Source of the DNA: Micavibrio sp. | Lineage (GTDB): Bacteria; Patescibacteriota; Minisyncoccia; Moranbacterales; GCA-2747515 | Length of the DNA stretch: 64,000 nt | Assembly: GCA_020718085.1 (NCBI GenBank) | Contig: DYDB01000005.1 | Span: 4,109 to 68,108 of the forward strand | Direction: 5' to 3' | Shown here: positions 3,541 to 55,209 of the stretch, one piece after another | Position numbering within the stretch: the first letter of the stretch is position 1 | How the letters are laid out: every line of letters starts with the position of its first letter | Notes under the pieces: generated by a model | What the model saw: the letters and a program-made list of their open reading frames with translations, nothing else | What the model was told of the DNA's origin: nothing | Databases searched by the model: none | Translations under genes and position numbers: made by a program

Positions 3541-3542
3541 AA

Positions 3543-38624: not shown

Positions 38625-39053
38625 TTATATGTTAATAACATATTTATGCGTTGTGTCATCAATCCATTCACATGTGATATGCACAAACTTTTCCGGCAAA
38701 AGATCTTGGATATGTTCCGGCCATTCAATGATCACGACATTTTTAGGATCATCAATGATCTCCTGCCACCCCAATTCTATCATATCATCACTCTTGATGC
38801 GATATGCATCAATATGATACATTCGCACAAATTCGCGCAATGTAATGTCATATTGTTTCATAATAGTAAATGTGGGACTGGTATACGGACCCTCCGCGCC
38901 ACAATACTGCAATATGCCCTGGGCAAGCGTTGTCTTACCGCCTCCAAGCTCACCATACAGACAAATGACACGGTTGCCGTCGCGTACTTGATCCATAATA
39001 TCCTTTGCCAATGCGTACGTTTGTGCAATTGATGATGAAATAATGGTTTTCAT
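38625..39053 (-). CDS. tsaE: tRNA threonylcarbamoyladenosine biosynthesis protein TsaE
   Basis: 'LYGELGGGKTTLAQGI' is the Walker A motif. Size 142 aa. Confidence 0.85.
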   Translation of the reverse strand: MKTIISSSIAQTYALAKDIMDQVRDGNRVICLYGELGGGKTTLAQGILQYCGAEGPYTSPTFTIMKQYDITLREFVRMYHIDAYRIKSDDMIELGWQEIIDDPKNVVIIEWPEHIQDLLPEKFVHITCEWIDDTTHKYVINI

Positions 39054-39156
39054 ACCTCTCAGAATACGCTATTTTTCTGACAGAAGCAATAATGTTTGAC
39101 AAAGAAAGTGTCTGTTGATACTCTGTACTATCACACAGTAAGAAATATGCTCTGTT

Positions 39157-40308
39157 ATGACACAAGACACCGTCGCACAATTCGAAAAATTGGTCAACAA
39201 TAGCTCTCACATCCTTATACTGTTACCAGAAAGTCCAAAGCATGATCTTTTTTGCTCTGCTTTAGCTCTTTCCCATTTTTGCGAAAACAAAAATATTCGC
39301 ACAACGATCGCATTCTCCGACCCCTATGAGGATACACAGTCTCTCAATTTCCTTCCTCACCCGCAAAACACATCGATCACTCACTCAATTTCAGGTTCTC
39401 GCGACCTCATTCTTTCCTTCAATACAAAATACAACAAAATTCTTCACGTCCGCACAGAACCTCATGACGATCACCTTGAAATTCATATCACACCGGAACA
39501 TGGTATGGTTGACTCACGCGATTTTTCTTTTTTGCCTGGAAAATTTCCTTATGATCTAATCATTGCAATTGGGGCTGTGGAAAAGGAATCCATGGGTAAA
39601 ATTTATGATGATATGCCGGATGTTTTTTATGAAATTCCTATCATTAACATCGACAATAAAAGTGCAAACGAACAATATGGTCAGGTTAATATAATCAATG
39701 CTGTTGCATCTTCCGTTTCTGAGATCATTGGTGATCTTTTGGAAAAATTACATACGCAAAAAATCCCTCAAGCCTGTGCACAATGCCTCCTCACCGGCAT
39801 CATCAGCGAAACAAATAGTTTTCAAAATCACAACACCACACCACATGCACTCACTCTTGCGAGCCATTTAATTGAATTTGGCGCAGATCAACAGATCATC
39901 ATTCGAAATTTATACCGCAATCAGACATTCTCACTGTTACAACTTTGGGGACGCGCCATGAAGAATCTCACCACACTTCCTTGTCACAAAAAAATCGTCA
40001 TCACCACGATCTCTCAGCGTGATTTTGAACAGACAAAGGCGGAAAAACACCAACTGCATGCGATTTTGAAAAAAATGAAACAAAATTATCCTTCCGGTAA
40101 AATTTTTCTTCTTATTTACGAAACTGAAACGGCTAATTTTGCAGCGCTCATTGACACGAAAAATGCCAATTTTTCACTGGATGACACAAGTGAGATCGTT
40201 AAACTTGGTGATTACAATTATGAGCTCCCTCTTACGACATTGACAATTGATGATGCCCATCGCTACATCAATGAATTTTTTGTACCACACGCTCATCTAT
40301 TGGATTAG
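39157..40308 (+). CDS. DHH/DHHA1-family (NrnA-like) phosphoesterase homolog with degenerate catalytic motifs
   Basis: Overall NrnA-like layout ('ILILLPESPKHD...SALAL' and 'TGIISETNSF'), but the canonical DxD, DHH and GGGH motifs are not intact. Confidence 0.5.
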   Translation: MTQDTVAQFEKLVNNSSHILILLPESPKHDLFCSALALSHFCENKNIRTTIAFSDPYEDTQSLNFLPHPQNTSITHSISGSRDLILSFNTKYNKILHVRTEPHDDHLEIHITPEHGMVDSRDFSFLPGKFPYDLIIAIGAVEKESMGKIYDDMPDVFYEIPIINIDNKSANEQYGQVNIINAVASSVSEIIGDLLEKLHTQKIPQACAQCLLTGIISETNSFQNHNTTPHALTLASHLIEFGADQQIIIRNLYRNQTFSLLQLWGRAMKNLTTLPCHKKIVITTISQRDFEQTKAEKHQLHAILKKMKQNYPSGKIFLLIYETETANFAALIDTKNANFSLDDTSEIVKLGDYNYELPLTTLTIDDAHRYINEFFVPHAHLLD

Positions 40309-40444
40309 AACTTTATTCTTTCACTTCTTATTAAAAACTGTTAGAATGACAGTGTTATGATGTGATACCACAATGACTGATCACTTTATTTTTTGATCTG
40401 CATATTGTGTGTTCCGCGTATTATAAAAATGAAAATCAAAACAT

Positions 40445-43400
40445 ATGGTCATCATCACGCATCCAAAGGAACCAGGTGAAAAATTACATGAACGAGAAAC
40501 CGAACGCACCTTGCAACAATTGCAGTCAAAGAGTCAGGAGGAGTTTGCATCTTACACAGCAAAGAGGCTTGGACTTCCTTATATTGATCTAAATATAACA
40601 CCTATTTCAAGCGATGATGTGGCAACCATCACAGAAGAGGATGCCAAAAAGAACCAAGTTGCAGTATTTCATAGTGCCGGAAAATATCTCAAACTTGGCA
40701 CACCACACCCAGAAAATACTGATTTGCATGCTTTTATAGAAAATTTAACAACTGTTAAGGGCTGGGATGTTGAATTGTTCGTAATTTCTCAAGATTCATT
40801 CGAAAAACTCTTACGTCAATACAAAAATTCATATTTCATCGACGCAATCGATACTATGCGATTGACACTGACAGGAAAAGATCTGGAGGAATTTGAAAAG
40901 GGACTTGGGCAATTATTGCGATTAAAAGACAATGTTGATGCACTTCCAACAACAGAGGTGCTCAACATTATTTTTTCTGGCGCTATTATGCTTCTTGCAA
41001 GCGATATTCATTTGGAACCGCAAAGAGAAATTGTGCATATGCGATATCGTATTGATGGTGTTCTGCAAAATGTCGTGTCCTTTCCTCATCACACACACAA
41101 ACTCTTGATCAATCGCATCAAGCTCATGAGCAAAATGAAAATTAACATACGCGATGAAGCGCAGGATGGACATTTTTCTTTTGCTCTGGATAACGAAACT
41201 CAAATTGATGTGCGTGTATCTACAATCCCCGGTAAAGAGTTTGAGGGTGTGGTAATGCGCTTGCTTCGCAGTGATAGCGTAACGGTTGATATCAACAGCC
41301 TAGGTCTTGCAGGCAAAGCTTTTGAAGATGTACAAAAGAACATTGCAAAAAATGCTGGTATGGTTCTCACGACCGGTCCGACAGGATCCGGCAAAACAAC
41401 CACCCTCTACACGCTCATTAATCACATCAAAACTGCGGAGACAAAAATTATTACGATCGAGGATCCAATTGAATATCAGATCGACGGCATTTCTCAAACG
41501 CAGATTTCCAAAGAACGTGGCTACACATTTGCACGAGGTCTCCGTGCGATCGTACGTCAAGATCCGGATGTGATTCTTGTGGGAGAAATTCGTGATGACG
41601 AGACTGCCGACGTTGCCGTCAATGCTGCACTCACAGGTCATCTCGTACTCTCCACATTACACACCAACAACGCGATCGCAACAATTCCTCGTCTCATGGA
41701 ATTAGGTGTCAAACCAACTCTTATTCCATCAGCTACGAACATTTTTATGGCACAGCGTCTTGTGCGCACGCTCTGTGAAAATTGCAAGGAAGAATATGTT
41801 CCTGCACAAGAAACCATTGAAATGTTCATGAAAATGGTCGCTCTCATTTCACCAAAAGCAAAATTAGAGGTGCCAAAACAGATCACAAAAATTCATCGTG
41901 CGGTTGGTTGTGAGAAATGTCATAACACAGGGTATAAAGGGCGTATAGGTATTTTTGAGGTTCTCGCCATGACAAATACCATCGAACAGTTGATCCTTGA
42001 TATGGCAAGTGAGACAGATGTTATGAAAGCAGCTCTTGAGGATGGCTTGGTTACTATGACACAAGATGGCGTGCTCAAAGCACTCAAAGGACAAACAACG
42101 ATCGAGGAGATCATGCGCGTCACCACAGAAGGTGAGTTGATCGAAAAGTTATATGAGGATCTCATGTCCCAATCACTTGCGCGTGGTATCTTCGTAAAAA
42201 ATGAAATTCAAAAACTCACAGCAGGAAATGCACAAAATTTTGATGCGATGAACACATTGATCAATGGCATGGAAGATAATGATGTGCTTCCGGCAATTCT
42301 CGCTTATGGATCAACACTCAAGTCCAGCGATATTCACATTGAACCTCAAGAGGACTTGGTGGACGTACGTATGCGTATTGATGGTGTTCTACAGTCCGTT
42401 GCGCACATGCCAATTATGAGCTACCCTCTTTTTCTCAGTAAAATCAAAGTGGTAAGCAATATTCCAACAACCATTCGCCAGGGAGTCTCCGATAGTCGAT
42501 TTCGCATTATGTATGAAAAAGATGATACCACAGAAAACCATGTGGATGTGCGTGTGTCGATCATCGTTGGTGGTTATGGTGAAACGGTTGTAATGCGTCT
42601 TCTCAACAGAGAAGCTGTGAACATCAATCTTCACACAATCGGTATTCGTGACTACAATCTTGACCGCATCATGTCTCAAGCACATAAACCCTATGGCATT
42701 ATTCTCAATACCGGTCCGACAGGATCCGGTAAAACAACCACACTTTATAGTGTATTGCGTGAGATCAACAGCCCTGACATTAAGATCATCACAATCGAAG
42801 ATCCGATTGAGTATCAATTAGATGGAATTTTGCAAACACAAATAGATAAAAAGGCCGGATACACATTTGCCTCTGCACTTCGTGCACTATTACGTCAAGA
42901 TCCGGACGTTATGCTCGTTGGTGAGATCCGTGATGAAGAAACCGCTGAAACAGCCGTTAATGCCGCTCTTACCGGACATCTCCTCATTTCTTCCCTTCAC
43001 ACCAACGACGCAGTAGGCGCCGTACAGCGCCTCATCCGACTTGGTATCGGCACTGATGACCTTACTACTGCTGTAAATGCTTTCATTGCACAACGTCTTG
43101 TACGCACACTGTGTGACTGCAAAAAAGATCGAACGCCCTCGGAAGAAGAAAAACAGATTATTGAAAAAACACTTGAAGGCATTTCTCCTCTTGTTAAAAT
43201 TCCACGTCCACAAACTGAGAAACTCTATATTCCCGGAGGATGCCCAAAGTGTAATGGAATTGGTTATAAAGGACGTACGGTCGTATCGGAGGTATTTATC
43301 ATGGATGATGATCTTCGTGGACTCATCGCTCATGGCGTACTTGTGTCCGAACTAAAAAACAAAGCCATTGAGAACGGCATGCTCACCATGGAGCAAGATG

Positions 43401-43465
43401 CTCTTCTCAAGGTTCTCGAAGGTGCAACAACATTGGAAGAGGCAAGGCGCGTCACAACATTATAA
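40445..43465 (+). CDS. Tandemly duplicated GspE/PilB-type secretion or pilus assembly ATPase. Two complete N-domain-plus-ATPase modules in one 1006-aa polypeptide.
   Basis: Two Walker A motifs, 'LTTGPTGSGKTTTLY' and 'LNTGPTGSGKTTTLY'. Two Asp boxes 'IITIEDPIEYQ'. Two Walker B motifs 'DPDV(I/M)LVGEIRD'. Two His boxes 'TGHL..S.LHTN'. Two tetra-Cys motifs (CENC...CEKC and CDC...CPKC). Confidence 0.85.
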   Translation: MVIITHPKEPGEKLHERETERTLQQLQSKSQEEFASYTAKRLGLPYIDLNITPISSDDVATITEEDAKKNQVAVFHSAGKYLKLGTPHPENTDLHAFIENLTTVKGWDVELFVISQDSFEKLLRQYKNSYFIDAIDTMRLTLTGKDLEEFEKGLGQLLRLKDNVDALPTTEVLNIIFSGAIMLLASDIHLEPQREIVHMRYRIDGVLQNVVSFPHHTHKLLINRIKLMSKMKINIRDEAQDGHFSFALDNETQIDVRVSTIPGKEFEGVVMRLLRSDSVTVDINSLGLAGKAFEDVQKNIAKNAGMVLTTGPTGSGKTTTLYTLINHIKTAETKIITIEDPIEYQIDGISQTQISKERGYTFARGLRAIVRQDPDVILVGEIRDDETADVAVNAALTGHLVLSTLHTNNAIATIPRLMELGVKPTLIPSATNIFMAQRLVRTLCENCKEEYVPAQETIEMFMKMVALISPKAKLEVPKQITKIHRAVGCEKCHNTGYKGRIGIFEVLAMTNTIEQLILDMASETDVMKAALEDGLVTMTQDGVLKALKGQTTIEEIMRVTTEGELIEKLYEDLMSQSLARGIFVKNEIQKLTAGNAQNFDAMNTLINGMEDNDVLPAILAYGSTLKSSDIHIEPQEDLVDVRMRIDGVLQSVAHMPIMSYPLFLSKIKVVSNIPTTIRQGVSDSRFRIMYEKDDTTENHVDVRVSIIVGGYGETVVMRLLNREAVNINLHTIGIRDYNLDRIMSQAHKPYGIILNTGPTGSGKTTTLYSVLREINSPDIKIITIEDPIEYQLDGILQTQIDKKAGYTFASALRALLRQDPDVMLVGEIRDEETAETAVNAALTGHLLISSLHTNDAVGAVQRLIRLGIGTDDLTTAVNAFIAQRLVRTLCDCKKDRTPSEEEKQIIEKTLEGISPLVKIPRPQTEKLYIPGGCPKCNGIGYKGRTVVSEVFIMDDDLRGLIAHGVLVSELKNKAIENGMLTMEQDALLKVLEGATTLEEARRVTTL

Positions 43466-43470
43466 AATCA

Positions 43471-43504
43471 AAAAACCGCTCACTGGATGTGAGCGGTTTT
43501 TTTG
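43471..43504 (+). terminator. Intrinsic terminator (accgctcactggatgtgagcggt followed by a T-run)
   Basis: Seen directly. Confidence 0.7.
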
Positions 43505-43523
43505 TATTGTTGACATTTTTGTA

Positions 43524-43700
43524 TCTGTAGACAGTTGCTACCTCCTTAGTTGAAACCGTAGGCAGCATACCCGCATGGTCAATGACTCATGCGGGGAGAA
43601 GAAGCGTCGAGGAGAGCCGCAGCCGAAACCACAAGAACCCGATCTGGACGAAACATCTTCCGTATGAGCTTAAAAGATAGAAAAGCCCATAGTTGTGCCT
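43524..43700 (+). ncRNA. Candidate structured RNA, GC-rich relative to its surroundings, closed by the 'gtatctgtag' / 'ctacagatac' stem. Its size and closed-hairpin architecture are compatible with 6S-like RNA, but this is unverified.
   Basis: Internal hairpin cccgcatg/catgcggg. Terminal 10-bp complementarity. It lies between a terminator and the ruvB start. Confidence 0.3.
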
Positions 43701-43771
43701 ACAGATACAAAAAAATCAACTTTTTAATGAATTCATCACAGGACTTACTATCCTAGCACACCTTTGAGTTA

Positions 43772-44878
43772 TTGTCAATAGGTGCTACAATGTACTACGT
43801 AGACATGCACTTTTTCCTTTCACAGAAAGTTTTTTTATACAAAGACACTATGACACTGATCACACATGAACATCACACTGAGATCGAAAATTCACCAGAA
43901 AACATTGACGCTCCTTCCGAGTTCACAATTGACTATACGTTGCGACCACAGCGTCTCTCTGACTACGTAGGGCAAGAAAAGATCAAGAAGCAACTCCGAA
44001 TTTTTCTCGATGCAGCCAAAAAACGCAAAGAGCCTCTTGAGCATATCCTCCTCTACGGACCTCCGGGATTAGGCAAAACCACTCTTGCCAACATCATTGC
44101 ACGCGAAATGAACGTCAATATCAAAACCACATCCGGACCGGCGATCGAGCGTGTGGGTGATCTTGGATCAATTCTTACAAATATGCAAGATGGGGACGTT
44201 CTCTTCATTGATGAAATTCATCGTCTCAATAAGGTGGTGGAAGAAGTCCTCTATCCTGCAATGGAAGATCACAAACTTGATCTCGTTGTAGGAAAAGGAC
44301 CTAGCGCTCAGGCTTTGCAAATAGATCTACCAAAATTCACGCTCATTGGTGCAACTACCCGCATGGGAAATCTCACAGGGCCCTTGCGTGATCGCTTTGG
44401 CGTTATTCATCGATTAGAATTTTACAATCAGGTAGATATTGAAAGTATCATATCCCGCAGCGCGTCAATTCTTACATGTGAAATTGATGAAGGTGGTGCA
44501 ACATGTCTTGCACGAGCCGCGCGTCAAACACCTCGCATTGCCAATCGCCTGCTCAAGCGCGCTCGTGATTGGGCAGATGTGCACGAACATGATCTGATCA
44601 ATGAACATGTTGCACATCAAGCACTTGCGATGTTAGACATTGATGAACACGGCCTAGAACCGACAGATCGTGAATTTTTACGTCTGATCATAGAAAAATT
44701 TGACGGTGGACCTGTTGGCATACAAACAATTGCCAACGCTCTCTCGGAAGAAGTGCAAACAATAGAGGATGTGTACGAGCCTTATCTTATGCAACGCGGA
44801 TTTCTTGCACGCTCACCTCGTGGACGGATCGTAACGGATCATGGCTATGCGCATATTAAAAAAAATAATTTGTTTTAA
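43772..44878 (+). CDS. ruvB: Holliday junction branch migration helicase RuvB
   Basis: '[18 protein letters not shown]', 'LFIDEIHRL' and sensor 2 are present. The likely start is an internal Met (MTLITHE). Confidence 0.95.
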
Positions 44879-44889
44879 ATTTTATTATT

Positions 44890-45114
44890 ATGTTTCCCAT
44901 TCTCGCACTCGTATACATTGCATTTATTCTTCTGATCGTCATATCGAGTTTTTTTATTGTGACGCGCCTGCAAGAATATTCTATTAACCCGACATTTACT
45001 AAGCCGCTTATCATCATGTTTGTCATTGTCACGATCATTTTGATCATTGTAAATTTCTCTTTTTTTGTAGCAATTCCTTTTGATGAAATGTTCTATAGTG
45101 ATAATTTATATTAA
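44890..45114 (+). CDS. Small membrane protein (74 aa)
   Basis: Two hydrophobic helices. Confidence 0.35.
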   Translation: MFPILALVYIAFILLIVISSFFIVTRLQEYSINPTFTKPLIIMFVIVTIILIIVNFSFFVAIPFDEMFYSDNLY

Positions 45115-45119
45115 AAAAT

Positions 45120-45680
45120 ATGAGACCAATTGATTATTATTTTTCTTTACAAAGCGGCAACGAAAAGATCCTGCGCATCATTCATCGACACTGGTTCAAT
45201 ATTGTAATTCAGTTCATCCCAATTTTTGCGTTGCTTGGCATGATGTTTTTGAGCATTGTGCTATATCCATACATTTTTACCGAATTCATCGACGAAAGTG
45301 CCCGCATACTTTTTTATTTTTTGCAAACGTTTTTTGCTCTATTAATGTGGATATATGGTTTTATTATCTGGTTTGACTATTATCTCGACATTTGGATCAT
45401 GACCACCGAACGCGTTGTCAATGTTGAGCAGAAAGGACTTTTTTCACGCCAAGTGAGCGAGCTTAAGTATCGCATGATCCAAGATGTATCTACAGATGTG
45501 AAAGGATTCTTTCCGACAATACTCAATTTTGGTGATTTGACGGTTCAAACGGCGGCTGAACAATCGCGATTCATGTTTCGTTCTGTCGGCAATCCTTATC
45601 ACATCAAAGCAGAGATTATGGCGCAACAAAAGAAAAAGAGCATGGAAGGCGTTACTTCCGTAAAGTTTGATCAATCGTAA
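45120..45680 (+). CDS. Membrane protein with bacterial PH-like (DUF304/bPH_2-type) architecture
   Basis: 'ILRIIHRHWFNIVIQF' followed by two TM helices and then a soluble domain. Confidence 0.45.
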   Translation: MRPIDYYFSLQSGNEKILRIIHRHWFNIVIQFIPIFALLGMMFLSIVLYPYIFTEFIDESARILFYFLQTFFALLMWIYGFIIWFDYYLDIWIMTTERVVNVEQKGLFSRQVSELKYRMIQDVSTDVKGFFPTILNFGDLTVQTAAEQSRFMFRSVGNPYHIKAEIMAQQKKKSMEGVTSVKFDQS

Positions 45681-45787
45681 AAACCACTTTGGGAAGACGA
45701 CTTTTGACATTTAAGATAGTTTTGTTAGAATAAAAAACTATATAAAAAGTACGAGAGCAGGGATCGCATCTCATAAAATCATATTTT

Positions 45788-48442
45788 ATGCGCACGATCG
45801 CTGTTTTTATATTAATATTCTCTCTTCTTTTTAAATTACAATTTGTTTGTGCAGAAAATAGCTCATCACCAGAAATTTTAAAAGATGCAGATGAAGAAGC
45901 AATAGAATCTCCATCAGAAATTGAAAATATATCAGACACAATAGAAGAAAACACATCTTTGCAACCACCTACGGAGGTCATTACAGCAGAAGATCCCAAA
46001 AAATCTATTGATGTGACAAATGGTGCTGAAACGACAATGGAACAACCTTCCGTTCAAGTAACCGAAGAACTCGTTGAGGCCCACACACAAGAAATGACTC
46101 CCTTACAAAGGATCGATCAAGATCCCTCATTAAAAATGCAGGAAAATAAGCAAAAGAAACCACTTGCACAATCCAAGGACATTTCTCTCAATGAAATTTT
46201 AGCTGATCCTGAATCCGGCAACGAATTTATCGAGATTCTAAACACAACAGACCGCCCCTTGAGTTTAGATGGGTGGTACTTATGTGACTTGTCTACATAT
46301 GATTCTGTAAATCAACAATGTGATAAAACAAGATCAAATACATATAAATTTTCACATACAAATATTGATTCGCATGCACTGATCACATTATATACAAAAA
46401 TACATATTAAATTTGGCCTCAATAATACGAGTGAAGAAATTTTCATTGAAGATGATTCTCAACACATCATTGATCATTATGCATATAAAACTTCTCACAA
46501 GGGCAAAAGCTGGAACAGCGATCCATTACAATGGTATGAAGAAACACCCACGCCAAATGCACAAAATATGCCAAATCCTCTCACAAAAGAATATCCCAAC
46601 ATTATCTTGAATGAAATTTTTCCACATCCCAAGGATAATCCAAATGATAATGAATTTATTGAAATATATAATCCCTTAAATGAAGATGTATCATTAGAGA
46701 ATTGGAAACTGATTGACGCCTCGCAATCAGGGTCATTTATATTTTCTTCTACGTCATTTACACCTTGCATCACAGATCCAGTCACGTGTTTTATTGTTCC
46801 CAAAAAAAGTTTTGTGACAGTGTACAGAAGTGACTTTGATTTTGCACTTAATGATAGTGGACCAGAAATAGTTTCTTTGGTCGCACCAAATAATAAAATT
46901 ATTTCCACCATGAGCTATGAAAACTCCGCGGAATCACTGTCACTCAATTTTTCCGCAAAGTGGTATCAGGCAGAGCCCACGCCCGGGAAAGAAAATGTTC
47001 CCGATCCACAAACACAAGCTTATCCCCAAATCCTACTCACAGAAATCCTTCCAAATCCGATTGGGGAAGAAAGTCTGAGAGAATACATCGAATTATATAA
47101 TCCTTTCGATGTGCCGGTTGATCTCAAAAACTGGACACTGCAAGATGCATCTGCTACCAGTCACCATGTCTTTTCGGACAATCTGTTCATCGCCCCATAT
47201 AGTTATCATGTGATCTATCGCGATGCGTTTATATTTGCACTAAATAACAACAAGGAAACTGTATCGCTTGTGGCGCCAAACAGTCAAATAATGAGCAAAA
47301 TATCTTATATCACGTCACGTGAAAACATTGCCTATAGTTATGATATATTAGATAAAAAATGGCGCTGGACCAAACATCTTACACCTGGCGCAAAAAATAT
47401 ATTTAACGACCTTCCTCAAATTTCACAAATTAACATCTCGCCCATCGCTTATAAAAACGTCTACACAAGTTTTACAGTCAGTGCAAAAGATCCAAACAAC
47501 GAACAACTTGCCGTTCGGTGGGATTTTGGCGATGACCACCGAAGTTATTTATGGAATACACGCCACAAGTATGTGTCCGAGGGCATCTATAACGGATCAC
47601 TACGCGTTCAAGATGAAAGCGAGGAGGTCATACACCACTTTACGGTTACTGTGCAAAAATATCCGAAATATGATCTCAAGATCAACAAGATCGCACCAAA
47701 TCCTTCCGGCAAAGATACTGGCGTGGAATATCTCATGATCCATAATCGCTCAAAGAAAGACATTGATCTGAATGGCTGGAGCATCGCAACAGGTTCAACA
47801 AAAAAGACACTTGTCAATCATCCTGTGAATCGCAAATTTACGATCAAAAAAGGCGGTTTGAAGATGATGACGCATAAATATGCCGCCATCACACTTCCCA
47901 ATAAAACTGGCGTCATTGAATTACGTCGACCGGATGGAACTGTAGCTGACCATATATCCTATGGTGATGCATCTCGATCAATTAAAAATGATGCATCTTT
48001 TGAATTGATTGATAATAAGTGGACATGGATCATTCCGGAAAACACTGCTAAAAAACAAGAAACACTTGCAATAATCATGCAAGCAATTGCAAACGAAGAT
48101 GCACTCTACCAACAAAAAAAAGAGCGTGAAATTGCATATGCTAAAATCCATGTTCCCAAAAATAATAATGCTTCCATGCATTTAGCTCATACAAGATATG
48201 CATTTTTGACATACTTATCAGAAGGGATAAATATTTTTCTTGCAAAGCATATTCCCTACATACAAAAAGAACTGATCGTTTTTTGGAAAGAACATACAAA
48301 AACAAAATGGGAACCTGCTGTTTATAAAATTGCCAATGCAAAAAGTCGTTGTTCAATCACACCTATTTTTGCACTGAATAATTCAAAATATGATTTTTGT
48401 GTAGAAAATAAATCAAACACTACTTTCATAAAAAATTTTTAG
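45788..48442 (+). CDS. Secreted protein with four lamin-tail-domain (LTD) repeats and a PKD-like domain
   Basis: Signal peptide. The four LTD repeats are 'NEILADP..NEFIEILN...LDGWYL', 'NEIFPHP...NEFIEIYNP...LENWKL', 'TEILPNP...REYIELYNP...LKNWTL' and 'INKIAPNP...VEYLMIHN...LNGWSI'. The PKD-like segment is 'VRWDFGDDHRS...HKY...G.Y.GSLRV'. Confidence 0.75.
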   Translation: MRTIAVFILIFSLLFKLQFVCAENSSSPEILKDADEEAIESPSEIENISDTIEENTSLQPPTEVITAEDPKKSIDVTNGAETTMEQPSVQVTEELVEAHTQEMTPLQRIDQDPSLKMQENKQKKPLAQSKDISLNEILADPESGNEFIEILNTTDRPLSLDGWYLCDLSTYDSVNQQCDKTRSNTYKFSHTNIDSHALITLYTKIHIKFGLNNTSEEIFIEDDSQHIIDHYAYKTSHKGKSWNSDPLQWYEETPTPNAQNMPNPLTKEYPNIILNEIFPHPKDNPNDNEFIEIYNPLNEDVSLENWKLIDASQSGSFIFSSTSFTPCITDPVTCFIVPKKSFVTVYRSDFDFALNDSGPEIVSLVAPNNKIISTMSYENSAESLSLNFSAKWYQAEPTPGKENVPDPQTQAYPQILLTEILPNPIGEESLREYIELYNPFDVPVDLKNWTLQDASATSHHVFSDNLFIAPYSYHVIYRDAFIFALNNNKETVSLVAPNSQIMSKISYITSRENIAYSYDILDKKWRWTKHLTPGAKNIFNDLPQISQINISPIAYKNVYTSFTVSAKDPNNEQLAVRWDFGDDHRSYLWNTRHKYVSEGIYNGSLRVQDESEEVIHHFTVTVQKYPKYDLKINKIAPNPSGKDTGVEYLMIHNRSKKDIDLNGWSIATGSTKKTLVNHPVNRKFTIKKGGLKMMTHKYAAITLPNKTGVIELRRPDGTVADHISYGDASRSIKNDASFELIDNKWTWIIPENTAKKQETLAIIMQAIANEDALYQQKKEREIAYAKIHVPKNNNASMHLAHTRYAFLTYLSEGINIFLAKHIPYIQKELIVFWKEHTKTKWEPAVYKIANAKSRCSITPIFALNNSKYDFCVENKSNTTFIKNF

Positions 48443-48569
48443 AATATATTATTGCACTGTGTGCCTAACACTGGTCCCAGATGGACGGTATTAAAAAAAT
48501 ATGGTTGAATTGTGAGAGGTTGGAAAGAACATGTACCTTAACACACTTACTAACGGGGAGGATTGATCC

Positions 48570-49856
48570 ATGCACCAATTGACAGTGATTATTTGTGGCG
48601 CATTACTTGGTACGGCATTTTACTATTTGTGCATATATTTGCTTAAAGTAGAAAAAAATCGCACATTTGTACAAGAGAACAACTATCTACATCCAAATAG
48701 CATTTGCTACATACGTACCGTATTGGCATGGTGTGGATACATTGCGTACTTCTTTTATGGATGGCAGGCATGCGGTATCATCGTTTTTACATTTGCGGCA
48801 ATTCTTGACGGCGTTGACGGTCTTGTTGCGCGTCAATGCAATTTGATCACAAAAAAAGGCGAGTCTCTGGACCCGCTTTGTGACAAACTTACATACTTGC
48901 CGCCACTAATCAGTTTTGCATATGATGGTTTTTTGACCATCTGGCTCGTATGGTTGTTCGTTGCCCTGGAATTTTGTGGACAATTTTTTGCGCGCACATT
49001 GTTGGAAAAATTTGATCTTTCTGTATCAGCCAACAACTTTGGCAAGATCAAAACGATCATCAGCTTCATGCTTGTAATCCTTTGTGCACTTAGCGATGCA
49101 AACCCTCATTGGTTCAATATGAACGAAGAGATCTTGGTTTTATGCATACTTCTTGGCTGTGCATCTGTTGTTTTCAAATTTGTAAATCGATCGCTGTATG
49201 CAGATATTTTCTCAATCCTTAATATGATCAGTGGTGTTATCTCTATCATCCTGGCAGTATGTGGACACATCACATTTGCCGTACTTACAGTGGTAATCGG
49301 ACAACTGTTTCATTTGTTGGATGGATACGCCGCGAAAAAATTTGCCATCACGCGATTTAGTGATTCTCTTGATCATTTGGCAGACTTGATCAGCTTTGTT
49401 TTATGTCCATTGGTCATTGTGTCGGTTCGTTGTGGTGACATTGGTATACTACCGGCGTTTGTTTATCTATTATGTGCCGCATATCATGTTACCACACATA
49501 ATTCACACAATACTTCCACCGCTGTATTCACGGGTTTATCCCCAGCTGCTGGCACTATGTCAATTTTGGGCGCATGCTTGGCACTCAACACAACAGGCAT
49601 TGTTATTTTGACCATGCTCGTTTCCATATTGTTAGTAAGTCACATTCGTCTCATGTATTTTGGTGCAATGGTGCGTAAAAAAGCACCTCGACCCGTACTA
49701 TTCGTCGTGAGCGCAGCCATTTTGGTCATCCTTGCATATGTAGTAAAATCACAAGATGCCCAATCCCTTGGCTATTCCATGATCTTATGTACAACGATAT
49801 ATTTTGTGTGTAGTTTTTATTTGTCACGCACATATAAAAATATCGAGATGGCCTAA
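48570..49856 (+). CDS. CDP-alcohol phosphatidyltransferase family membrane protein with two copies of the catalytic motif
   Basis: 'DGVDGLVARQCNLITKKGESLDPLCDKL' matches D-G-x2-A-R...G-x3-D-x3-D. A second copy is 'DGYAAKKFAITRFSDSLDHLAD'. Confidence 0.6.
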   Translation: MHQLTVIICGALLGTAFYYLCIYLLKVEKNRTFVQENNYLHPNSICYIRTVLAWCGYIAYFFYGWQACGIIVFTFAAILDGVDGLVARQCNLITKKGESLDPLCDKLTYLPPLISFAYDGFLTIWLVWLFVALEFCGQFFARTLLEKFDLSVSANNFGKIKTIISFMLVILCALSDANPHWFNMNEEILVLCILLGCASVVFKFVNRSLYADIFSILNMISGVISIILAVCGHITFAVLTVVIGQLFHLLDGYAAKKFAITRFSDSLDHLADLISFVLCPLVIVSVRCGDIGILPAFVYLLCAAYHVTTHNSHNTSTAVFTGLSPAAGTMSILGACLALNTTGIVILTMLVSILLVSHIRLMYFGAMVRKKAPRPVLFVVSAAILVILAYVVKSQDAQSLGYSMILCTTIYFVCSFYLSRTYKNIEMA

Positions 49857-49878
49857 AGTTTCTCAACCTTTCCCCATG

Positions 49879-49917
49879 CCCCCTATCACAATAATTGTGA
49901 TAGGGGGCATTTAAATA
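49879..49917 (+). terminator. Strong intrinsic terminator (gccccctatcacaat aa ttgtgatagggggc followed by atttaaat)
   Basis: 14-bp perfect stem. Confidence 0.7.
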
Positions 49918-49993
49918 ACCGTTGCCAAAAATGAAAAAAAATGTGAAGATATGCACATATCTTTCTTAAATTAAATTATTATCATTTTTCTCT

Positions 49994-50692
49994 ATGTCAG
50001 GACATAATAAATGGTCAGGTATTAAACATCGTAAGGAAGCGCAGGATGCAAAACGTTCCAAAGTTTTCACGCGTATCGCTAAAGCTATTGCTGTTGCAGT
50101 ACAAGATGGCGGTCCGGATGTTGCAACCAACAACTCTTTACGAATTGCAATTGATCAAGCGCGCAAGGCAAATATGCCAAAGGAAAATATTGATCGCGCG
50201 ATCAAACGTGGCAGTGGTGCCGATGGCACACGCATCGAAGAGGTTGTTTATGAGGCAATGGGGCCCGGCGGTGTGGCAATGATGATCGCCTGTGCCACAG
50301 ACAACACCAATCGCACACTTACAGAAATAAAAACGATTCTCAAAAAAAATAATGGAAAATTTGTTCCTAGTGGCAGCGTTGCATTTCAGTTTGATTATGT
50401 TGGATATATCACAACAATTCCGAAAGATCGTGATGAAGCAGAAATGATCGCGATTGAAGCTGGTGCGGACGATGTTTTTATTGAGGATGACAGCGTTGTG
50501 ATCATTACAAAGCCACAAAATTTACATGCCGTACTTGCACAAATCACAGATGACATCACCGAAGCAAAACTTGTATACAACCCAACTCAAACCGTTCAAT
50601 TAAACGATGCAGACAGAGGGGTTTACGAGGCACTATATGATCTTTTGGATGGATCAGATGATGTTGTGGAGATCTTTGACAACATTGCTTAA
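49994..50692 (+). CDS. yebC: YebC/PmpR family DNA-binding transcriptional regulator
   Basis: N-terminus 'MSGHNKWSGIKHRKEAQDAKRSKVFTRIAKAI'. Confidence 0.9.
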   Translation: MSGHNKWSGIKHRKEAQDAKRSKVFTRIAKAIAVAVQDGGPDVATNNSLRIAIDQARKANMPKENIDRAIKRGSGADGTRIEEVVYEAMGPGGVAMMIACATDNTNRTLTEIKTILKKNNGKFVPSGSVAFQFDYVGYITTIPKDRDEAEMIAIEAGADDVFIEDDSVVIITKPQNLHAVLAQITDDITEAKLVYNPTQTVQLNDADRGVYEALYDLLDGSDDVVEIFDNIA

Positions 50693-50723
50693 AAATGCTA
50701 TACTCATCAGTTAAAACAAAATT

Positions 50724-51236
50724 ATGGTTCGTATATTAGGTATAGATCCTGGAACGGCAATTGTGGGATGGGGTGTGATTGATTATAATTCGCAAAAACT
50801 CTCCAGCGCAGTTGTTGCATATGGTCACATTGAAACACCCGCGACACTTACTGACGCTGCACGTCTTGATGAAATTCATTCCGGCATCATTGATCTGATC
50901 AAAACATACAAGCCACAAGAAGCTGGGATTGAAGCGTTGTTTTATTTTAAAAATGCAAAGACTGTGATCACGGTTGCACAGGCACGTGGTGTAATTTTGC
51001 ACACCTGTTATAGACATCACCTTATCATTGGAGAATACACGCCTCTGCAAATAAAACAATCATTAACAGGTTATGGTCGCGCCAATAAAAATCAAATGCA
51101 GGAAATGATCAAAAACGTGTTAAAATTAAAAAAGATACCAGAGCCTGATGACACAGCTGATGCACTCGCTGTTGCAATCTGTCATAGTAATTCTCGCAAG
51201 TATTTACAAACCATTAAATCTCGCATTTATGCCTGA
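50724..51236 (+). CDS. ruvC: Crossover junction endodeoxyribonuclease RuvC
   Basis: 'ILGIDPGTAIVGWGV' carries the catalytic Asp. Size 170 aa. Follows yebC. Confidence 0.9.
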   Translation: MVRILGIDPGTAIVGWGVIDYNSQKLSSAVVAYGHIETPATLTDAARLDEIHSGIIDLIKTYKPQEAGIEALFYFKNAKTVITVAQARGVILHTCYRHHLIIGEYTPLQIKQSLTGYGRANKNQMQEMIKNVLKLKKIPEPDDTADALAVAICHSNSRKYLQTIKSRIYA

Positions 51237-51921
51237 ACTATATTACAATCCGTTGATCAATTTTCTTCTCATGCAACACGTTGATATTTCCACAATCACC
51301 CTTCTTTTACTTTTTCCTGTAATCGTGACAGTTGTGGTAGTTTTGCGTCAAATTGTCGGCATTCAAGCTTTTGGTATTTATACACCATCAATCATCACAC
51401 TTGCATTCGTCTTTATTGGACAACAGCGCTGGTCGGATATCAAATATGCCATCATGGTCTATGTCACAGTGCTTTGTGTTGGCATGATGATGCGCTATGT
51501 GCTCAAAAAACTTAGACTTCTTTACTTACCACGCGTTGCCATAACCCTTACAGTTGTATCCTTTTCTGTTTTGGCAATTCTTGCTTTTGGCGGCAGCATG
51601 GGTCGCACAGGATTTGCATCAGCTCCCATTTTTCCCATTCTCATCATCATCATGCTAGTAGAAAAATTTGTAACTGTGCAAATCGAAAAAGGTTCGCGCA
51701 CAGCAATTATTCTTGCTGTTGAAACACTTTTTATCGCATTGGTGGGATATACAATTCTTTCTCCTACGACGATCATTGGTAAAACATTTATCAGCTTTAC
51801 CCTTATTCATACATGGGTTGTTCTCCTCATTATCCCAATCAACCTCTTCATCGGAAAATGGACCGGCTTGCGTCTTAGTGAGTATTTGCGTTTCCGAGAC
51901 GTTATCAAAAAAATTCAATAA
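51229..51921 (+). CDS. Polytopic (roughly 7-TM) membrane protein, first gene of the ATP-grasp cluster
   Basis: Six to seven hydrophobic helices. The ATG at 51229 is translationally coupled to the ruvC stop. The ORF-track start at 51148 overlaps ruvC. Confidence 0.55.
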   Translation: MPELYYNPLINFLLMQHVDISTITLLLLFPVIVTVVVVLRQIVGIQAFGIYTPSIITLAFVFIGQQRWSDIKYAIMVYVTVLCVGMMMRYVLKKLRLLYLPRVAITLTVVSFSVLAILAFGGSMGRTGFASAPIFPILIIIMLVEKFVTVQIEKGSRTAIILAVETLFIALVGYTILSPTTIIGKTFISFTLIHTWVVLLIIPINLFIGKWTGLRLSEYLRFRDVIKKIQ

Positions 51922-51932
51922 TATTTGCGCTC

Positions 51933-53342
51933 ATGTTTATGTTGTTTTCCGCAAGCAAAAAGATTCTCGGGATGAATGCACGCAATCTCACCTACATTCG
52001 TCCAAATAATCGCAAAAAAGCGAAACGCCTTGCCGATGAAAAAATTACATCAAAGAAATTGCTCAAAAAAGCGGGAGTGCCTGTTCCGCGACTGATCGCA
52101 CAAATTTCTTCCCGTCGAACTTTGGAAAATTTTGACTGGACTATTCTTCCACCAAGCTTTGTACTTAAACCGAATCGCGGTTTGGGTGGTGATGGCATTA
52201 TTGTGGTATATGGTAGAAAAAAAGGTTCTACAGATACATGGGTGAGATCCAATGGCAAGCCAATCACGATCACAGATCTCAAAATGCACATCGGACATAT
52301 TCTTGATGGTGAATTTTCTCTTTCGGGCACACCGGACTTTGCTTTTTTTGAAGAACGTCTTAAACTTTCCAAAGAATTTCGCCCCTATGCCTACAGAGGA
52401 ATACCAGATATTCGTGTGATCGTTTATAATAAAGTTCCTGTCATGGCAATGTTGCGACTTCCGACAAAGGAGTCCGATGGAAAAGCAAATCTCCAACAAG
52501 GAGGAATAGGCGTGGGAATTGATATGGCTCGTGGTATCACTACAACGGCGGTGCAGGGGAAGTCACGCATTGTGGAGTACGTACCTGACACGCGACTTTT
52601 GCTTTCTGGTATTAAAATTCCTTATTGGGATGAGATTCTTCATCTTGCCATTAAATCACAAATCGCTTCGGGACTTGGTTATCTCGGTGCAGATATTGCG
52701 ATCGATCGTGACAATGGGCCAGTAATACTTGAACTTAATGCACGACCAGGTCTTTCCATTCAAGTTGCAAATCTCGCTGGACTTAAACGTCGTCTTGAGC
52801 GTGTAGAGGGACTCAAAATCAATACCATTGCTCGAGGCATTGCTGTTGGTAAAAATCTTTTTGGCGGTGAGATCGAAGAAGAACTTGAAAGTGTTTCAGG
52901 GAAAAGCGTCATCGGTCCAGTGGAAAAAGTTGAGATCATTGGCATCGCAAATAAAAAGATAACCACACAAGCAAAGATCGACACTGGCGCATATTCCACA
53001 TCAATCGACACTGAGCTTGCCCGTGAACTTGGCTTTGGACCAACAATTGATTCATTTGCCAAGATCGACCTCACGGAGTTTGGAGAAGTCACTGAAAAAG
53101 GCCTCGGGATAGGCAAAAAGATTGAAAAAAAATATGGTAGTCGCATCCCTCATCTCATTGAAACATCCGTAACATGGTCTTCCAGCGGCGTCACAATTCG
53201 TCCGATCGTAAAACTCACATTTGTCATGGACAAAAAATCCATCACAACAAAAGTGAACATCGTGGATCGCAGCGACCTAAAATACAATATGATCATCGGT
53301 AAAAGAAACCTTGGAAAATTTCTTGTAGATGTCAGTAAATAA
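51933..53342 (+). CDS. ATP-grasp ligase (alpha-L-glutamate-ligase-related / RimK-like) fused to a C-terminal retropepsin-like (DUF785/RimB-type) domain
   Basis: The N-terminus 'LGMNARNLTYIRPNN...LLKKAGVPVP...FVLKPNRGLGGDGIIVV' has an ATP-grasp core. The C-terminus 'QAKIDTGAYSTSI' is a D-T/S-G-A aspartic-protease-like motif. Confidence 0.7.
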   Translation: MFMLFSASKKILGMNARNLTYIRPNNRKKAKRLADEKITSKKLLKKAGVPVPRLIAQISSRRTLENFDWTILPPSFVLKPNRGLGGDGIIVVYGRKKGSTDTWVRSNGKPITITDLKMHIGHILDGEFSLSGTPDFAFFEERLKLSKEFRPYAYRGIPDIRVIVYNKVPVMAMLRLPTKESDGKANLQQGGIGVGIDMARGITTTAVQGKSRIVEYVPDTRLLLSGIKIPYWDEILHLAIKSQIASGLGYLGADIAIDRDNGPVILELNARPGLSIQVANLAGLKRRLERVEGLKINTIARGIAVGKNLFGGEIEEELESVSGKSVIGPVEKVEIIGIANKKITTQAKIDTGAYSTSIDTELARELGFGPTIDSFAKIDLTEFGEVTEKGLGIGKKIEKKYGSRIPHLIETSVTWSSSGVTIRPIVKLTFVMDKKSITTKVNIVDRSDLKYNMIIGKRNLGKFLVDVSK

Positions 53343-53450
53343 AAGATCATTTTTTTAGACACATATCCTGTGATGTGTCCAATCTGTCATATGTAGACAT
53401 AATCGACACTTCTCTTTTTTACTACTGATATATTTTTATACACACTTTTT

Positions 53451-54338
53451 ATGAAAATTGCATATTTTGGATACAAAAAAGAGAGTTATGCTCCCAAAAC
53501 CATTATCGACTTTTGTAAAAAAAATGGTCACAAAATTACATTTTTCAATGTTGATGATCTACTTTTCTGTAATGGCACCCTAACTAAAAATTTATCACCC
53601 TTAAATTTAGATGATTTTGATGCAGCAATTATCCGTAGTCATGGAAGAGTGACCGATGATACCTATCAAGAAAATTTTGTTTTTACATATCACATAAATA
53701 AGTTACTGCATGATCACTCCATCCCAACGATCAATGGCGCCTTTTTTATTAAAAATCCCTTTTTTGATAAGTTCTCACAATCCCTTTTTTTCGCCCAAAG
53801 AGATATTCCGACAATTCCGACAATCTACAGCGCGTCACCATCTAAACTGCAAAGGAAACATATTCCTTGGGACTTTCCTCTGATCATAAAGGAGATCAAT
53901 GGCTCTTTTGGCTTATCTGTACACAAAATCGATATGTACACAGATTTGGCCATCTGGACTAAAAAAAATCCACATGCACAGATCATTCTACAACAGTTTA
54001 TTCCAGCCACATGTGATTATCGCGTGATCGTTTGTGGAAAAAAAGCGCTAGGCATCATGAGAAGATCCAGCATATCAAATGGATGGAAGCATAATTTTTC
54101 CCAAGGTGCTACAATAGAGGCATACTCTGATGAGCGCATGTCCAAATTTGCCGAACATGTGGCACAAAAATTGCACTGTGATTTTGTTGGTGTGGATATT
54201 ATCGTTGATCAGAAAGGAAATTATTTGGTTGTTGAAATAAACTTATCTGCAAATTTTAAGGGCTTTGAAAAAATTCATGCCAAATATCTTGTAGGAAAAA
54301 ACATTATTGAAACACTTGCTCAAAAAAAAATTTATTAA
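53451..54338 (+). CDS. RimK-like ATP-grasp ligase
   Basis: 'PLIIKEINGSFGLSVHK' matches the K...G.G ATP-grasp motif. Size and layout are RimK-like. Confidence 0.7.
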   Translation: MKIAYFGYKKESYAPKTIIDFCKKNGHKITFFNVDDLLFCNGTLTKNLSPLNLDDFDAAIIRSHGRVTDDTYQENFVFTYHINKLLHDHSIPTINGAFFIKNPFFDKFSQSLFFAQRDIPTIPTIYSASPSKLQRKHIPWDFPLIIKEINGSFGLSVHKIDMYTDLAIWTKKNPHAQIILQQFIPATCDYRVIVCGKKALGIMRRSSISNGWKHNFSQGATIEAYSDERMSKFAEHVAQKLHCDFVGVDIIVDQKGNYLVVEINLSANFKGFEKIHAKYLVGKNIIETLAQKKIY

Positions 54339-54348
54339 GATCATCTCT

Positions 54349-55209
54349 ATGAAAAGATCATTTGCTATTATTGGACCAAAAAGATCACAAAATACCATGG
54401 ATCTTCATAATGAGATCGAAAAACGTGGACATGCCTGCACTATATACACTATCAATGATATATCCGTCAATACACAAAATTATGCTTTGCACCCGTTTTT
54501 TTCTCATGATATTTATTTATTCCGCGGGTACAATAGATCAATTGGTTTTGCACGATCACTTGCCACAATACTCCATTCACTTCATAAAACAGTTATAGAT
54601 AACATTCTGTATACATCGACCCTGAGCAATAAATTTCAAGAATCCATTCTATTAAAAGAAAGAAATATACCACAACCACCAACATATTATGCTTGCTCTT
54701 CGCAACAATGGGAGTTTATTTTGAAAGACATCTCCTTTCCTCTTGTTGTAAAACCCATAAATGGTCAACAGGGACAGGGTATTCACAAATGCTTTACAAT
54801 GGAAGAAGTGCTTGATGTTGTCAAAAGTGATGAAAAAAACTTCATTGCACAAGAATTTTTACCCGCTGATGGAGATGTGCGCATTTTCATAGTCGATCAA
54901 GAGATATTGGGAGCAATAAAACGATTTATCATACCAGGTGATTTCAGATCAAATGCTTCGCTAGGCGCTCGTACCGAAACATATCATTTGTCATCAAAAG
55001 AAAAAGAAATTGCCTTAGCTGCTCATAAGGCATTGGGATATAATGTTTCCGGTGTTGATATGATCATTTCACATGATAAACAGTACATATTAGAGGTGAA
55101 CCACACACCGCAGTGGCAAGCATTTAAGAGAACGACAGACATACATCCGGAACCACATATAATCAATTTTGCATTACACCAATATGAAAAAGAAAATCGG
55201 CTTCAATAA
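54349..55209 (+). CDS. RimK-like ATP-grasp ligase
   Basis: 'PLVVKPINGQQGQGI' and 'GDFRSNASLGARTE' closely parallel E. coli RimK 'PLVVKLVEGTQGIGV' and 'GDFRSNLHRGG'. 'LEVNHTPQW' is also present. The ORF-track start at 54307 overlaps the previous gene, so Met 54349 is preferred. Confidence 0.8.
   Translation: MKRSFAIIGPKRSQNTMDLHNEIEKRGHACTIYTINDISVNTQNYALHPFFSHDIYLFRGYNRSIGFARSLATILHSLHKTVIDNILYTSTLSNKFQESILLKERNIPQPPTYYACSSQQWEFILKDISFPLVVKPINGQQGQGIHKCFTMEEVLDVVKSDEKNFIAQEFLPADGDVRIFIVDQEILGAIKRFIIPGDFRSNASLGARTETYHLSSKEKEIALAAHKALGYNVSGVDMIISHDKQYILEVNHTPQWQAFKRTTDIHPEPHIINFALHQYEKENRLQ

Follow-up and report, generated by a model that had tools for sequence, protein, structure and literature searches.

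A 64-kb stretch of contig DYDB01000005.1 (assembly GCA_020718085.1, positions 4,109 to 68,108), the whole of which is here called the window, comes from a genome deposited as Micavibrio sp. and placed by GTDB in the Moranbacterales, among the Patescibacteriota of the candidate phyla radiation (CPR). It encodes an ATPase of the PilB/GspE class in which two complete catalytic modules are joined in one polypeptide. The gene belongs to a conserved CPR family with an old internal duplication, lies in a conserved gene order outside any pilus operon, and keeps the motifs of both ATP sites intact. The reality of the gene, its conservation, duplication history, motif integrity and synteny, taken together, we regard as virtually certain. 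We propose that three chains would close a single six-module ring, which may power a type IV filament machine, the rest of which would be encoded elsewhere; to this whole explanation (conserved double-module ATPase, single-ring trimer of doubles and filament role together) we give a probability of roughly 60%.

The open reading frame (ORF) of 1006 codons runs from an ATG start to a TAA end with no internal stop. The Pfam profile T2SSE (PF00437) hits its product at 735.7 bits against a cutoff of 24.9 (E = 9.8e-222) in two matched stretches, and all the motifs listed for it occur twice, bearing out an initial annotation, made from the letters alone, that had read two complete ATPase modules in a single polypeptide. 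Self-alignment of the protein pairs residues 164-561 with 606-1005 (402 aa, 46% identical, E = 4e-123), the similarity of the halves on which that annotation had relied. As DNA, the two halves share only ~70% identity, confined to the motif region, so they are neither a collapsed nor an expanded repeat. Each module consists of an N2 domain and a catalytic C-terminal domain (CTD) (Table 1). An N-terminal domain had also been described in both halves; the repeated domain is present, and is N2, but the true N1 docking domain occurs once only, ahead of module 1, and Pfam finds none in module 2. A monomer model built with AlphaFold2 (AF2) folds both modules confidently, with a mean predicted local distance difference test score (pLDDT) of 81.8, and the linker in it passes from a helix through a short low-confidence hinge (aa 573-579) to helices that match the ones leading into N2 of module 1.

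Conservation was measured in an alignment of 117 full-length core-family orthologs. Walker A, Asp box, Walker B and His box are each found twice, as had been claimed, with 100% conserved catalytic residues. Walker B has the shared pattern RQDPDV.LVGEIRD in both modules; the Asp box IITIEDPIEY lies at aa 335 and 781 (invariant Glu E339 and E343, E785 and E789), and the His box TGHL..S.LHTN at aa 397 and 843 (invariant H399 and H406, H845 and H852). The N2-domain Arg residues R200, R202 and R272 of module 1 and R642, R644 and R718 of module 2 are 100% conserved as well. The claim of two tetracysteine Zn motifs stands for the four cysteines in each module but not for their spacing in module 2, whose first pair is C-x-C (C890-D-C892) and not C-x-x-C. 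This spacing is constant across the 117 orthologs and forms a family signature; in alignment A1, which also takes in more distant doubles, C892 and C933 fall to at least 90% conservation.

Mean pairwise identity among the same orthologs is lowest for N1 (0.42) and is 0.44 for the linker; for N2 and CTD it is 0.64 and 0.73 in module 1, and 0.62 and 0.68 in module 2. Aligned positions that are both conserved and identical in the two modules number 86. Module 1 lies at a distance of 0.959 from the outgroup, much as the single-module orthologs do (0.963), and module 2 lies ~10% further (1.060). Near-universal positions were defined as columns with at least 90% conservation in a set of 126 single-module PilBs, which gave 73; module 1 retains all of these, and module 2 is relaxed at five of the 73, none of them core catalytic. 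An apparent loss of a universal Arg in module 1 (QDGH for QDGR) was discarded, the column being <90% conserved among single-module proteins. As far as these sequences tell, the asymmetry between the modules is real but mild, and both ATP sites look competent.

Among solved structures, module 1 matches PilB best (6OLJ/5TSH, ~350 bits) and module 2 GspE (4PHT, 299 bits); with each module, solved PilT chains score ~120 bits as against 300-350 for PilB and GspE. Superposition of the modules on PilB/PilF cores gives target template-modelling (TM) scores of 0.88-0.92 and root-mean-square deviations of 2.6-3.4 Å at 41-43% identity, and the solved chains cover at most one module of the protein (query TM-score <=0.36). 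The tetracysteine Zn motif and the N1 domain are absent from PilT. The profile for PilT/PilU (TIGR01420) gives 191.6 bits for N1 plus module 1 and 167.3 for linker plus module 2, short of its cutoff of 319.1, and that for ComGA (NF041000) gives 247.8 and 221.1 bits, short of 300. By sequence, the protein is of the PilB/GspE class and not of the PilT class; it agrees with the sequence-level definitions of PilB and GspE and departs from them in modules per chain, operon context and equivalog thresholds.

The best 120 matches in a search of 5.8 billion clustered proteins are 936-1055 aa long, except for one of 1460 aa (P0019, treated below), and share 53-97% identity at 93-100% coverage. NCBI, JGI, ENA and Logan assemblies all contributed such matches, and those with a name are Moranbacteria/Moraniibacteriota, Parcubacteria or Patescibacteria; some orthologs lie on long contigs, of 1.29 Mb (CP175956.1 of assembly GCA_046116545.1, with P0018) and 1.55 Mb. 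When 1.84 billion 50%-identity representatives were scanned exhaustively with HMMER, ~15 double-length proteins emerged, with many single-module PilB/GspE proteins of ~550 aa beneath them. Counting with a module hidden Markov model (HMM) gave 134 doubles and one triple among 270 fetched proteins. The alternative that sequencing or assembly error spuriously joined two adjacent genes, which the initial annotation had itself raised, is refuted by this family: more than 130 full-length proteins from independent assemblies show the same uninterrupted architecture with the same junction, and the halves have no near-identical DNA. Module 2 without module 1 was seen only in P0151; a naturally split gene was considered for it, but the protein proved to be a fragment cut off by the end of a 1.9-kb contig of ~1.4x coverage. 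We put the chance of an artefact as negligible. What had been presented as a peculiarity of one locus is a real duplication but an old one, carried by a conserved family.

Trees were calculated by neighbour-joining on Kimura distances, and 103 PilB-like modules from all fetched loci were sorted by neighbourhood: 56 are of operon type (with PilT, PilC or PilM no more than 3.5 kb away), 31 of a Ruv/TsaE type with no pil genes, one has both contexts and 15 have neither. The 31 Ruv/TsaE-context modules form, with three others, a clade of 34 (184/200 bootstraps, 92%) that includes 0/56 operon-type PilBs, is sister to the CPR operon-type PilBs, and has mostly single-module members. It takes in each CPR double with both of its halves, and the triple with all three modules. 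That the two modules of the window protein lie in one CPR-specific paralog clade points to internal duplication and not to fusion with another PilB paralog, in keeping with the intragenic tandem duplication first proposed; each half is PilB-type and distinct from operon-type PilB. Within the core family, module 1 orthologs group at 100% bootstrap and module 2 orthologs likewise, which makes the duplication older than the radiation of that family. Module 1 is nearer to a syntenic single-module ortholog (P0137, 565 aa, in the slot between the DHH-like gene and ruvB; 49.6% identity, 430 bits) than it is to module 2 (46%, 357 bits).

Other members of this orthologous slot caught the process at later stages. 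In the double P0130 (context PolA, TsaE, ATPase) the modules are 74% identical and sisters at 100% bootstrap; in the double P0131, with ruvB downstream, they are 54% identical and sisters at 99%. The triple P0019 (L005:10001-14383, JGI 3300022698 contig Ga0248662_100121) has 1460 aa, one N1 and three complete modules with Walker A at aa 314, 761 and 1211; its third module came from duplication of module 2, modules 2 and 3 being 58% identical and joined at 77%. On this sequence evidence modules have been duplicated at least three times in the lineage, in an old (window protein), an intermediate (P0131) and a recent (P0130) event, although intragenic gene conversion could mimic the last two. Across these events, the inter-module linkers measure 35-48 aa in every double and triple measured.

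A fusion of two different paralogs, for example of an operon-type pilB with a second ATPase gene or through pilB-pilT read-through, would draw on the facts that adjacent pilB-pilT pairs are common and that tblastn matches of 2.4-3.3 kb occur in many phyla. However, the long matches from other phyla, when tried as fusions, proved to be adjacent genes of the pilB-pilT type; among the matches listed in the GTDB genome scan, only L006 (Moraniibacteriota) is a continuous double. Moreover, both modules are of PilB/GspE class and not PilT, both sit inside a CPR-specific clade that has no operon-type PilB, and the younger duplicates P0130 (74%) and P0131 (54%) display duplication directly. We judge such a fusion very improbable.

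For ring stoichiometry, the activity of both sites and the cellular process served we infer the following arrangement. Solved PilB and GspE are toroidal hexamers whose protomers each set their N2 on the CTD of a neighbour; a C2-symmetric cycle has been proposed for the family, and for the PilC/PulF platform a trimer has been proposed whose monomers each turn two cytoplasmic domains towards the ring of six ATPase protomers (PMC11656802). One chain, with its two modules and a linker of ~43 residues, would occupy two neighbouring ring positions, tied by the covalent linker, and three chains would close one six-module ring with modules 1 and 2 alternating, as in the PilB/GspE toroid; two chains of the three-module relative P0019 would do the same. 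Such a ring would carry three N1 docking domains, matching the threefold organisation proposed for the PilC/GspF platform, and both module types would hydrolyse ATP. Since two and three both divide six, a pseudo-hexameric ring (trimer of doubles, dimer of triples) is the best reading, and we consider the single-ring trimer of doubles probable. The occurrence of double and triple forms within one ortholog group, with no protein of more than three modules among the 270 fetched, and the constant linker length fit a six-position ring. In a C2 cycle with alternating modules, opposite positions would differ in type and every catalytic state would be shared by one module 1 and one module 2, so both types must be competent; the strict conservation of both sites fits this need.

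Tandem ATPase modules commonly stack as two rings (KaiC, p97, ClpA/B; for the ClpA double ring, PMC7568338), which would here mean six chains forming one hexameric ring of module 1 and another of module 2. The sharp orthology groups of the two modules, at 100% bootstrap each, are what distinct rings would lead one to expect. KaiC, p97 and ClpB belong to a fold family different from the PilT/VirB11-like fold. Yet in PilB/GspE it is within one ring that N2 packs on the neighbouring CTD, and a linker of 35-48 aa from the C-terminus of one CTD to the next N2 fits neighbouring positions. A stacked arrangement would also require three rings for the three-module relative, and recent duplicates, with modules 74% identical, would initially form mixed rings anyway. 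Finally, N1 stands on module 1 only, and the two faces of the PilB ring are functionally distinct (PMC11656802). We hold the stacked double ring to be quite unlikely.

The initial annotation had treated the flanking genes as unrelated; instead, TsaE, the DHH-like protein, the ATPase and RuvB make up a CPR-conserved synteny block. The slot formed by tsaE, the DHH-like gene and ruvB is found around single- and double-module members in at least 25 loci, with single-module ATPases in it from Paceibacterota, Doudna-, Wildermuth-, Nealson- and Staskawiczbacteria and others. Downstream in the window follow ruvB, a small membrane protein, a bPH_2 protein, a surface protein with lamin-tail (LTD) and PKD domains, yebC and an ATP-grasp cluster, and the order from tsaE to the ATP-grasp genes recurs around orthologs of only 42-55% identity. 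The DHH-like gene is directly upstream of the ATPase in 11 loci (L001-L007, L012, L023, L028, L086) and beside it in L068 and L090; it keeps its place directly upstream of the triple P0019 although the ruvB block has moved. Its product scores 24.9 bits with the Pfam DHH profile (cutoff 28.1) and 32.8 against 350 bits with the NrnA model, and its catalytic motifs are degenerate in the window (motif I PKHD for PDGD, motif III DNK for DHH), so that it is probably a pseudo-phosphoesterase in the source genome. Its relatives have PDGD, PEGD or PSGD as motif I, and DHH as motif III in L090.

As to pilus genes, the earlier statement that none, and no secretion genes, lie near this orphan ATPase holds for the window, whose 40 larger ORFs were searched with Pfam and whose six frames all lack the prepilin G-F-T-L-I-E motif. 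In CPR and Parcubacteria, type IV pilus (T4P) operons are widely distributed and count as core (PMC6744442, PMC4508563), and canonical CPR pilus operons were seen in L033, L058, L015 and L036. Given that CPR and Parcubacteria genomes generally carry such an operon, the simplest role for the ATPase would be to serve, as a second motor, a type IV filament machine encoded elsewhere, either a pilus or a competence pseudopilus; we rate this role at about even odds.

Table 1. Features of the ATPase gene and its surroundings, with positions in the window.
Feature	Position	Strand	Details
tsaE, divergent, conserved upstream neighbour	38625..39053	-	Pfam TsaE; synteny
DHH-like protein, 383 aa, conserved upstream neighbour	39157..40308	+	
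Promoter-like site (TTCACT-16-TAGAAT, TG before) in 137-bp upstream gap	40320..40347	+	consensus match only
Double-module PilB/GspE-class ATPase ORF	40445..43465	+	1006 aa, 111.9 kDa; N1-[N2+CTD]-linker-[N2+CTD]
N1 domain (MshEN/GSPII-like, aa 42-127), single copy	40568..40825	+	Pfam PF05157, 28.1 bits vs cutoff 23.1
Module 1 (aa 164-562; N2 aa 164-290, catalytic CTD aa 291-562)	40934..42130	+	
Walker A, module 1, GPTGSGKT (aa 311; K317)	41375..41398	+	100% conserved in 117 orthologs
Walker B, module 1, RQDPDVILVGEIRD (aa 371; E381)	41555..41596	+	E381 100% conserved
Tetracysteine Zn motif, module 1, C444-x2-C447 ... C489-x2-C492	41774..41920	+	four Cys 100% conserved
Inter-module linker (aa 563-605)	42131..42259	+	AF2 model
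Module 2 (aa 606-1006; N2 aa 606-736, catalytic CTD aa 737-1006)	42260..43462	+	
Walker A, module 2, GPTGSGKT (aa 757; K763)	42713..42736	+	K763 100% conserved
Walker B, module 2, RQDPDVMLVGEIRD (aa 817; E827)	42893..42934	+	E827 100% conserved
Variant putative Zn motif, module 2, C890-x-C892 ... C933-x2-C936	43112..43252	+	four Cys 100% conserved (117)
Bidirectional intrinsic terminator, 14-bp stem, T-runs both sides	43470..43502	.	5 bp past stop; between ATPase and ruvB
ruvB, conserved downstream neighbour	43772..44878	+	Pfam RuvB_N/RuvB_C; adjoins ATPase in most ortholog loci

The neighbours lend themselves to another account, in which a filament is no longer assembled and the paralog has been recruited to DNA uptake or processing with the DHH-like (RecJ/NrnA-fold) protein and Ruv, or to nucleotide-dependent signalling; the trimer-of-doubles ring could still hold under it. 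As a paralog the clade stands apart from operon-type PilB (92% bootstrap), its members are never beside pil genes, its conserved neighbours are DNA-related (DHH-like, RuvB, YebC, PolA, and RuvC, 6 bp downstream in L087), N1 is missing from some members, and the scores stay under the PilB and GspE equivalog cutoffs. Against this, the synteny block also holds unrelated housekeeping genes (tsaE and a peptidyl-prolyl isomerase, PPIase); with these in the block and dnaA/dnaN ~18 kb away, the synteny may be an inherited gene order near the replication origin. A strong terminator separates the ATPase from ruvB, and together with the promoter-like site upstream it makes the ATPase appear to be its own transcription unit. 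The GC-rich 270-bp spacer before ruvB was tried as a structured RNA; it has no Rfam match at gathering threshold or with a meaningful E-value, and its folding z-score is -0.2. The degenerate catalytic motifs of the DHH-like protein in the source genome count against joint DNA processing, as does the retention of all PilB-class features, Zn motif and N1 included, and we know of no PilB/GspE-class member that acts directly on DNA. A non-pilus role is in our estimate unlikely.

Data from one bacterium may add to the case for a non-pilus role. The saccharibacterium S. epibionticum ML1 has a third, orphan GspE/PulE gene, SEML1_0527 (540 aa), called GD/ES/ES (growth-defective/essential) in transposon sequencing (Tn-seq); its comEC is dispensable, and its PilB2 (SEML1_0758) is called NE/NE/GD, in a locus that ends beside a PH-domain gene and ruvB (PMC10633639). 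SEML1_0527 may belong to the Ruv/TsaE-type clade. A bolder thought, which we think rather unlikely to be right, is that the ATPase of the Ruv/TsaE locus could be the engine of a separate CPR-specific machine with the DHH-like pseudo-phosphoesterase, for instance for DNA uptake or hand-over to recombination, and that repeated linking of modules (twofold, threefold) could have been selected because sites that alternate and are slightly specialised would give a fixed threefold or twofold ring asymmetry impossible in a homohexamer.

Several points tell against the explanation we prefer, a trimer of doubles that drives a type IV filament machine. (i) No T2SSF, PilM/N/O, PilT, pilin or prepilin peptidase family occurs among the 40 larger ORFs of the window, and no pilus, platform or pilin gene lies within ~10 kb of the orthologs in eight contexts; the search covered the window and these ~10-kb ortholog flanks, and the operon in the source genome is a presumption. 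(ii) The equivalog profile for PilB (TIGR02538, cutoff 675.65) gives 473 for N1 plus module 1 and 377.8 for linker plus module 2, and that for GspE (TIGR02533, cutoff 630.25) gives 469 and 417.8, so neither threshold is reached. (iii) The single-module clade members L023, L028, L038, L040 and L068 are ~431-450 aa long and without an N1 docking domain, which weakens the assumption of docking to a PilM/GspL-type partner. (iv) The predicted TM score (pTM) of the AF2 monomer is only 0.57, leaving the relative placement of the modules uncertain. (v) As to the history, exclusive sisterhood of modules 1 and 2 has only 31% bootstrap in the neighbour-joining tree, and the triple is known from a single contig.

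The window protein can be set beside several known systems. (i) With PilB (G. metallireducens 5TSH/6OLJ; T. thermophilus PilF core 5IT5/5OIU) it shares the order N1-N2-CTD, the Walker, Asp and His boxes and the tetracysteine, and it differs in having two catalytic modules per chain, a single N1 and the C-x-C of module 2, and in a gene that lies outside any pilus operon and in a separate CPR-specific paralog clade. (ii) GspE (Vibrio EpsE/GspE 1P9R, 4KSS, 4PHT) has the fold and motif set of its modules, whereas the window gene has tandem modules and no type II secretion system (T2SS) genes nearby; CPR bacteria are without outer membrane and secretin (PMC6744442). (iii) Single-module CPR orthologs (P0137, and the Parcubacteria family of ~558 aa around P0297) share clade, synteny and N1-module organisation, but have one module per chain, presumably form ordinary homohexamers, and in some cases are without N1. 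(iv) The platform PilC/GspF is internally duplicated and proposed to form a trimer with 3 x 2 cytoplasmic domains (PMC11656802), a layout that the double ATPase would mirror; being a membrane protein of unrelated fold and no ATPase, it is alike in architecture only. (v) Engineered linked Msp1 dimers are reported as active pseudo-hexameric trimers of dimers (PMC12793716), and single-chain ClpX is another engineered linked ring ATPase; these are artificial and AAA+, whereas the window protein is natural, anciently fixed and of the PilT/VirB11-like secretion ATPase family. (vi) Acinetobacter baylyi uses two diverged PilB-type ATPases, PilB and TfpB, in one system (PMC8213720; PMC11656802), and a 2024 review raised PilB-TfpB hetero-oligomers as an open question (PMC11656802). 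PilB and TfpB are separate genes and polypeptides, unlike the covalently joined modules here. (vii) Thermus thermophilus PilF repeats its N-terminal GSPII domains. With 913 aa it is an unusually long PilB homolog whose internal domain repetition (6F8L) goes with one ATPase module.

We also note some loci and relatives found in the course of the search. (i) L026, with tsaE upstream and pilC downstream, was considered as a bridge to the saccharibacterial PilB2 (T4P-2) and rejected; it groups with operon-type PilB. (ii) A search seeded with the L009 ortholog returned only a large Parcubacteria family of ~558 aa, and no Southlakia/TM7x ortholog was found in it. L009, L020, L021 and L023 are titled 'uncultured Candidatus Saccharibacteria', labels that look unreliable: their ATPases cluster tightly with sequences of Paceibacterota, Zambryskibacteria and Wildermuthbacteria and are 72-80% identical to Parcubacteria proteins. 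(iii) An unrelated double-module T2SSE protein of 1047 aa, P0144 (L089:9001-12144, GCA_964384625.1), comes from a genome whose gene content (sulfatase, CBM9, ECF sigma, BatA, MoxR) resembles that of the PVC group. Pfam T2SSF (platform-protein) matches lie N-terminal to both of its ATPase modules, and it may be a platform-domain/ATPase fusion.

A long CPR gene order spans 38625-56119 of the window and is seen in L001, L003 and L086, kept at 42-75% protein identity. It runs from PolA, after a gap, through TsaE, the DHH-like protein, the ATPase, RuvB, a small transmembrane protein and bPH_2 to the LTD/PKD surface protein, YebC, (RuvC), 7TM_transglut, ATPgrasp_ST and two to three RimK-like ATP-grasp proteins. 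Its surface protein (45788-48442) is a secreted protein of 884 aa with four LTD domains and PKD, kept downstream of ruvB and bPH_2 in orthologous loci. Elsewhere in the window, 1669-7121 holds genes for an AIPR protein of the abortive-infection type and for a large serine recombinase with Resolvase and Recombinase domains; they end right at a tRNA gene (7049-7121, minus strand) and have the look of a mobile or defence element integrated there. At 11306-11974 (minus strand), a 222-aa protein has a C-terminal PEP-CTERM sorting motif (Pfam E = 3.6e-5), unexpected in CPR. PEP-CTERM is associated with Gram-negative exosortase systems. A membrane-anchored DsbA/thioredoxin-like protein is encoded at 7954-8709; Meheust et al. 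2019 (PMC6744442) count such thiol-disulfide oxidoreductases among the proteins enriched in CPR, with a possible part in the folding of pilins.

Public records annotate the proteins of this family generically as 'GspE/PulE family protein'. In full-text literature searches, neither tandem, fused or duplicated PilB/GspE nor 'two T2SSE' turned up, and the words 'tandem' and 'duplicat' do not occur in the 2024 PilB review (PMC11656802). Neither the double-module architecture, nor its recurrence, nor the clade of orphan paralogs seems to have been described before.

Debate continues on how PilB, GspE and PilT motors coordinate their six sites, with a C2 rotary cycle set against C3 and C6 states, and on whether a mixed ring built from two paralogs is functional; in other ring ATPases, coordination has usually been studied with engineered linked subunits. 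If the ring model is true, the family would offer a natural counterpart of these, a PilB-type motor in which modules come linked in pairs and, in one case, as a trimer; both sites have stayed intact over a long evolution, so mutating one defined ring position would be straightforward. The 3 x 2 ATPase layout would parallel the model of the PilC/GspF platform as a trimer of two-domain subunits. CPR genomes carry a second, conserved PilB lineage outside the pilus operon, with neighbours of its own, which CPR pilus gene inventories have not told apart, in organisms whose episymbiotic lifestyle relies on pili.

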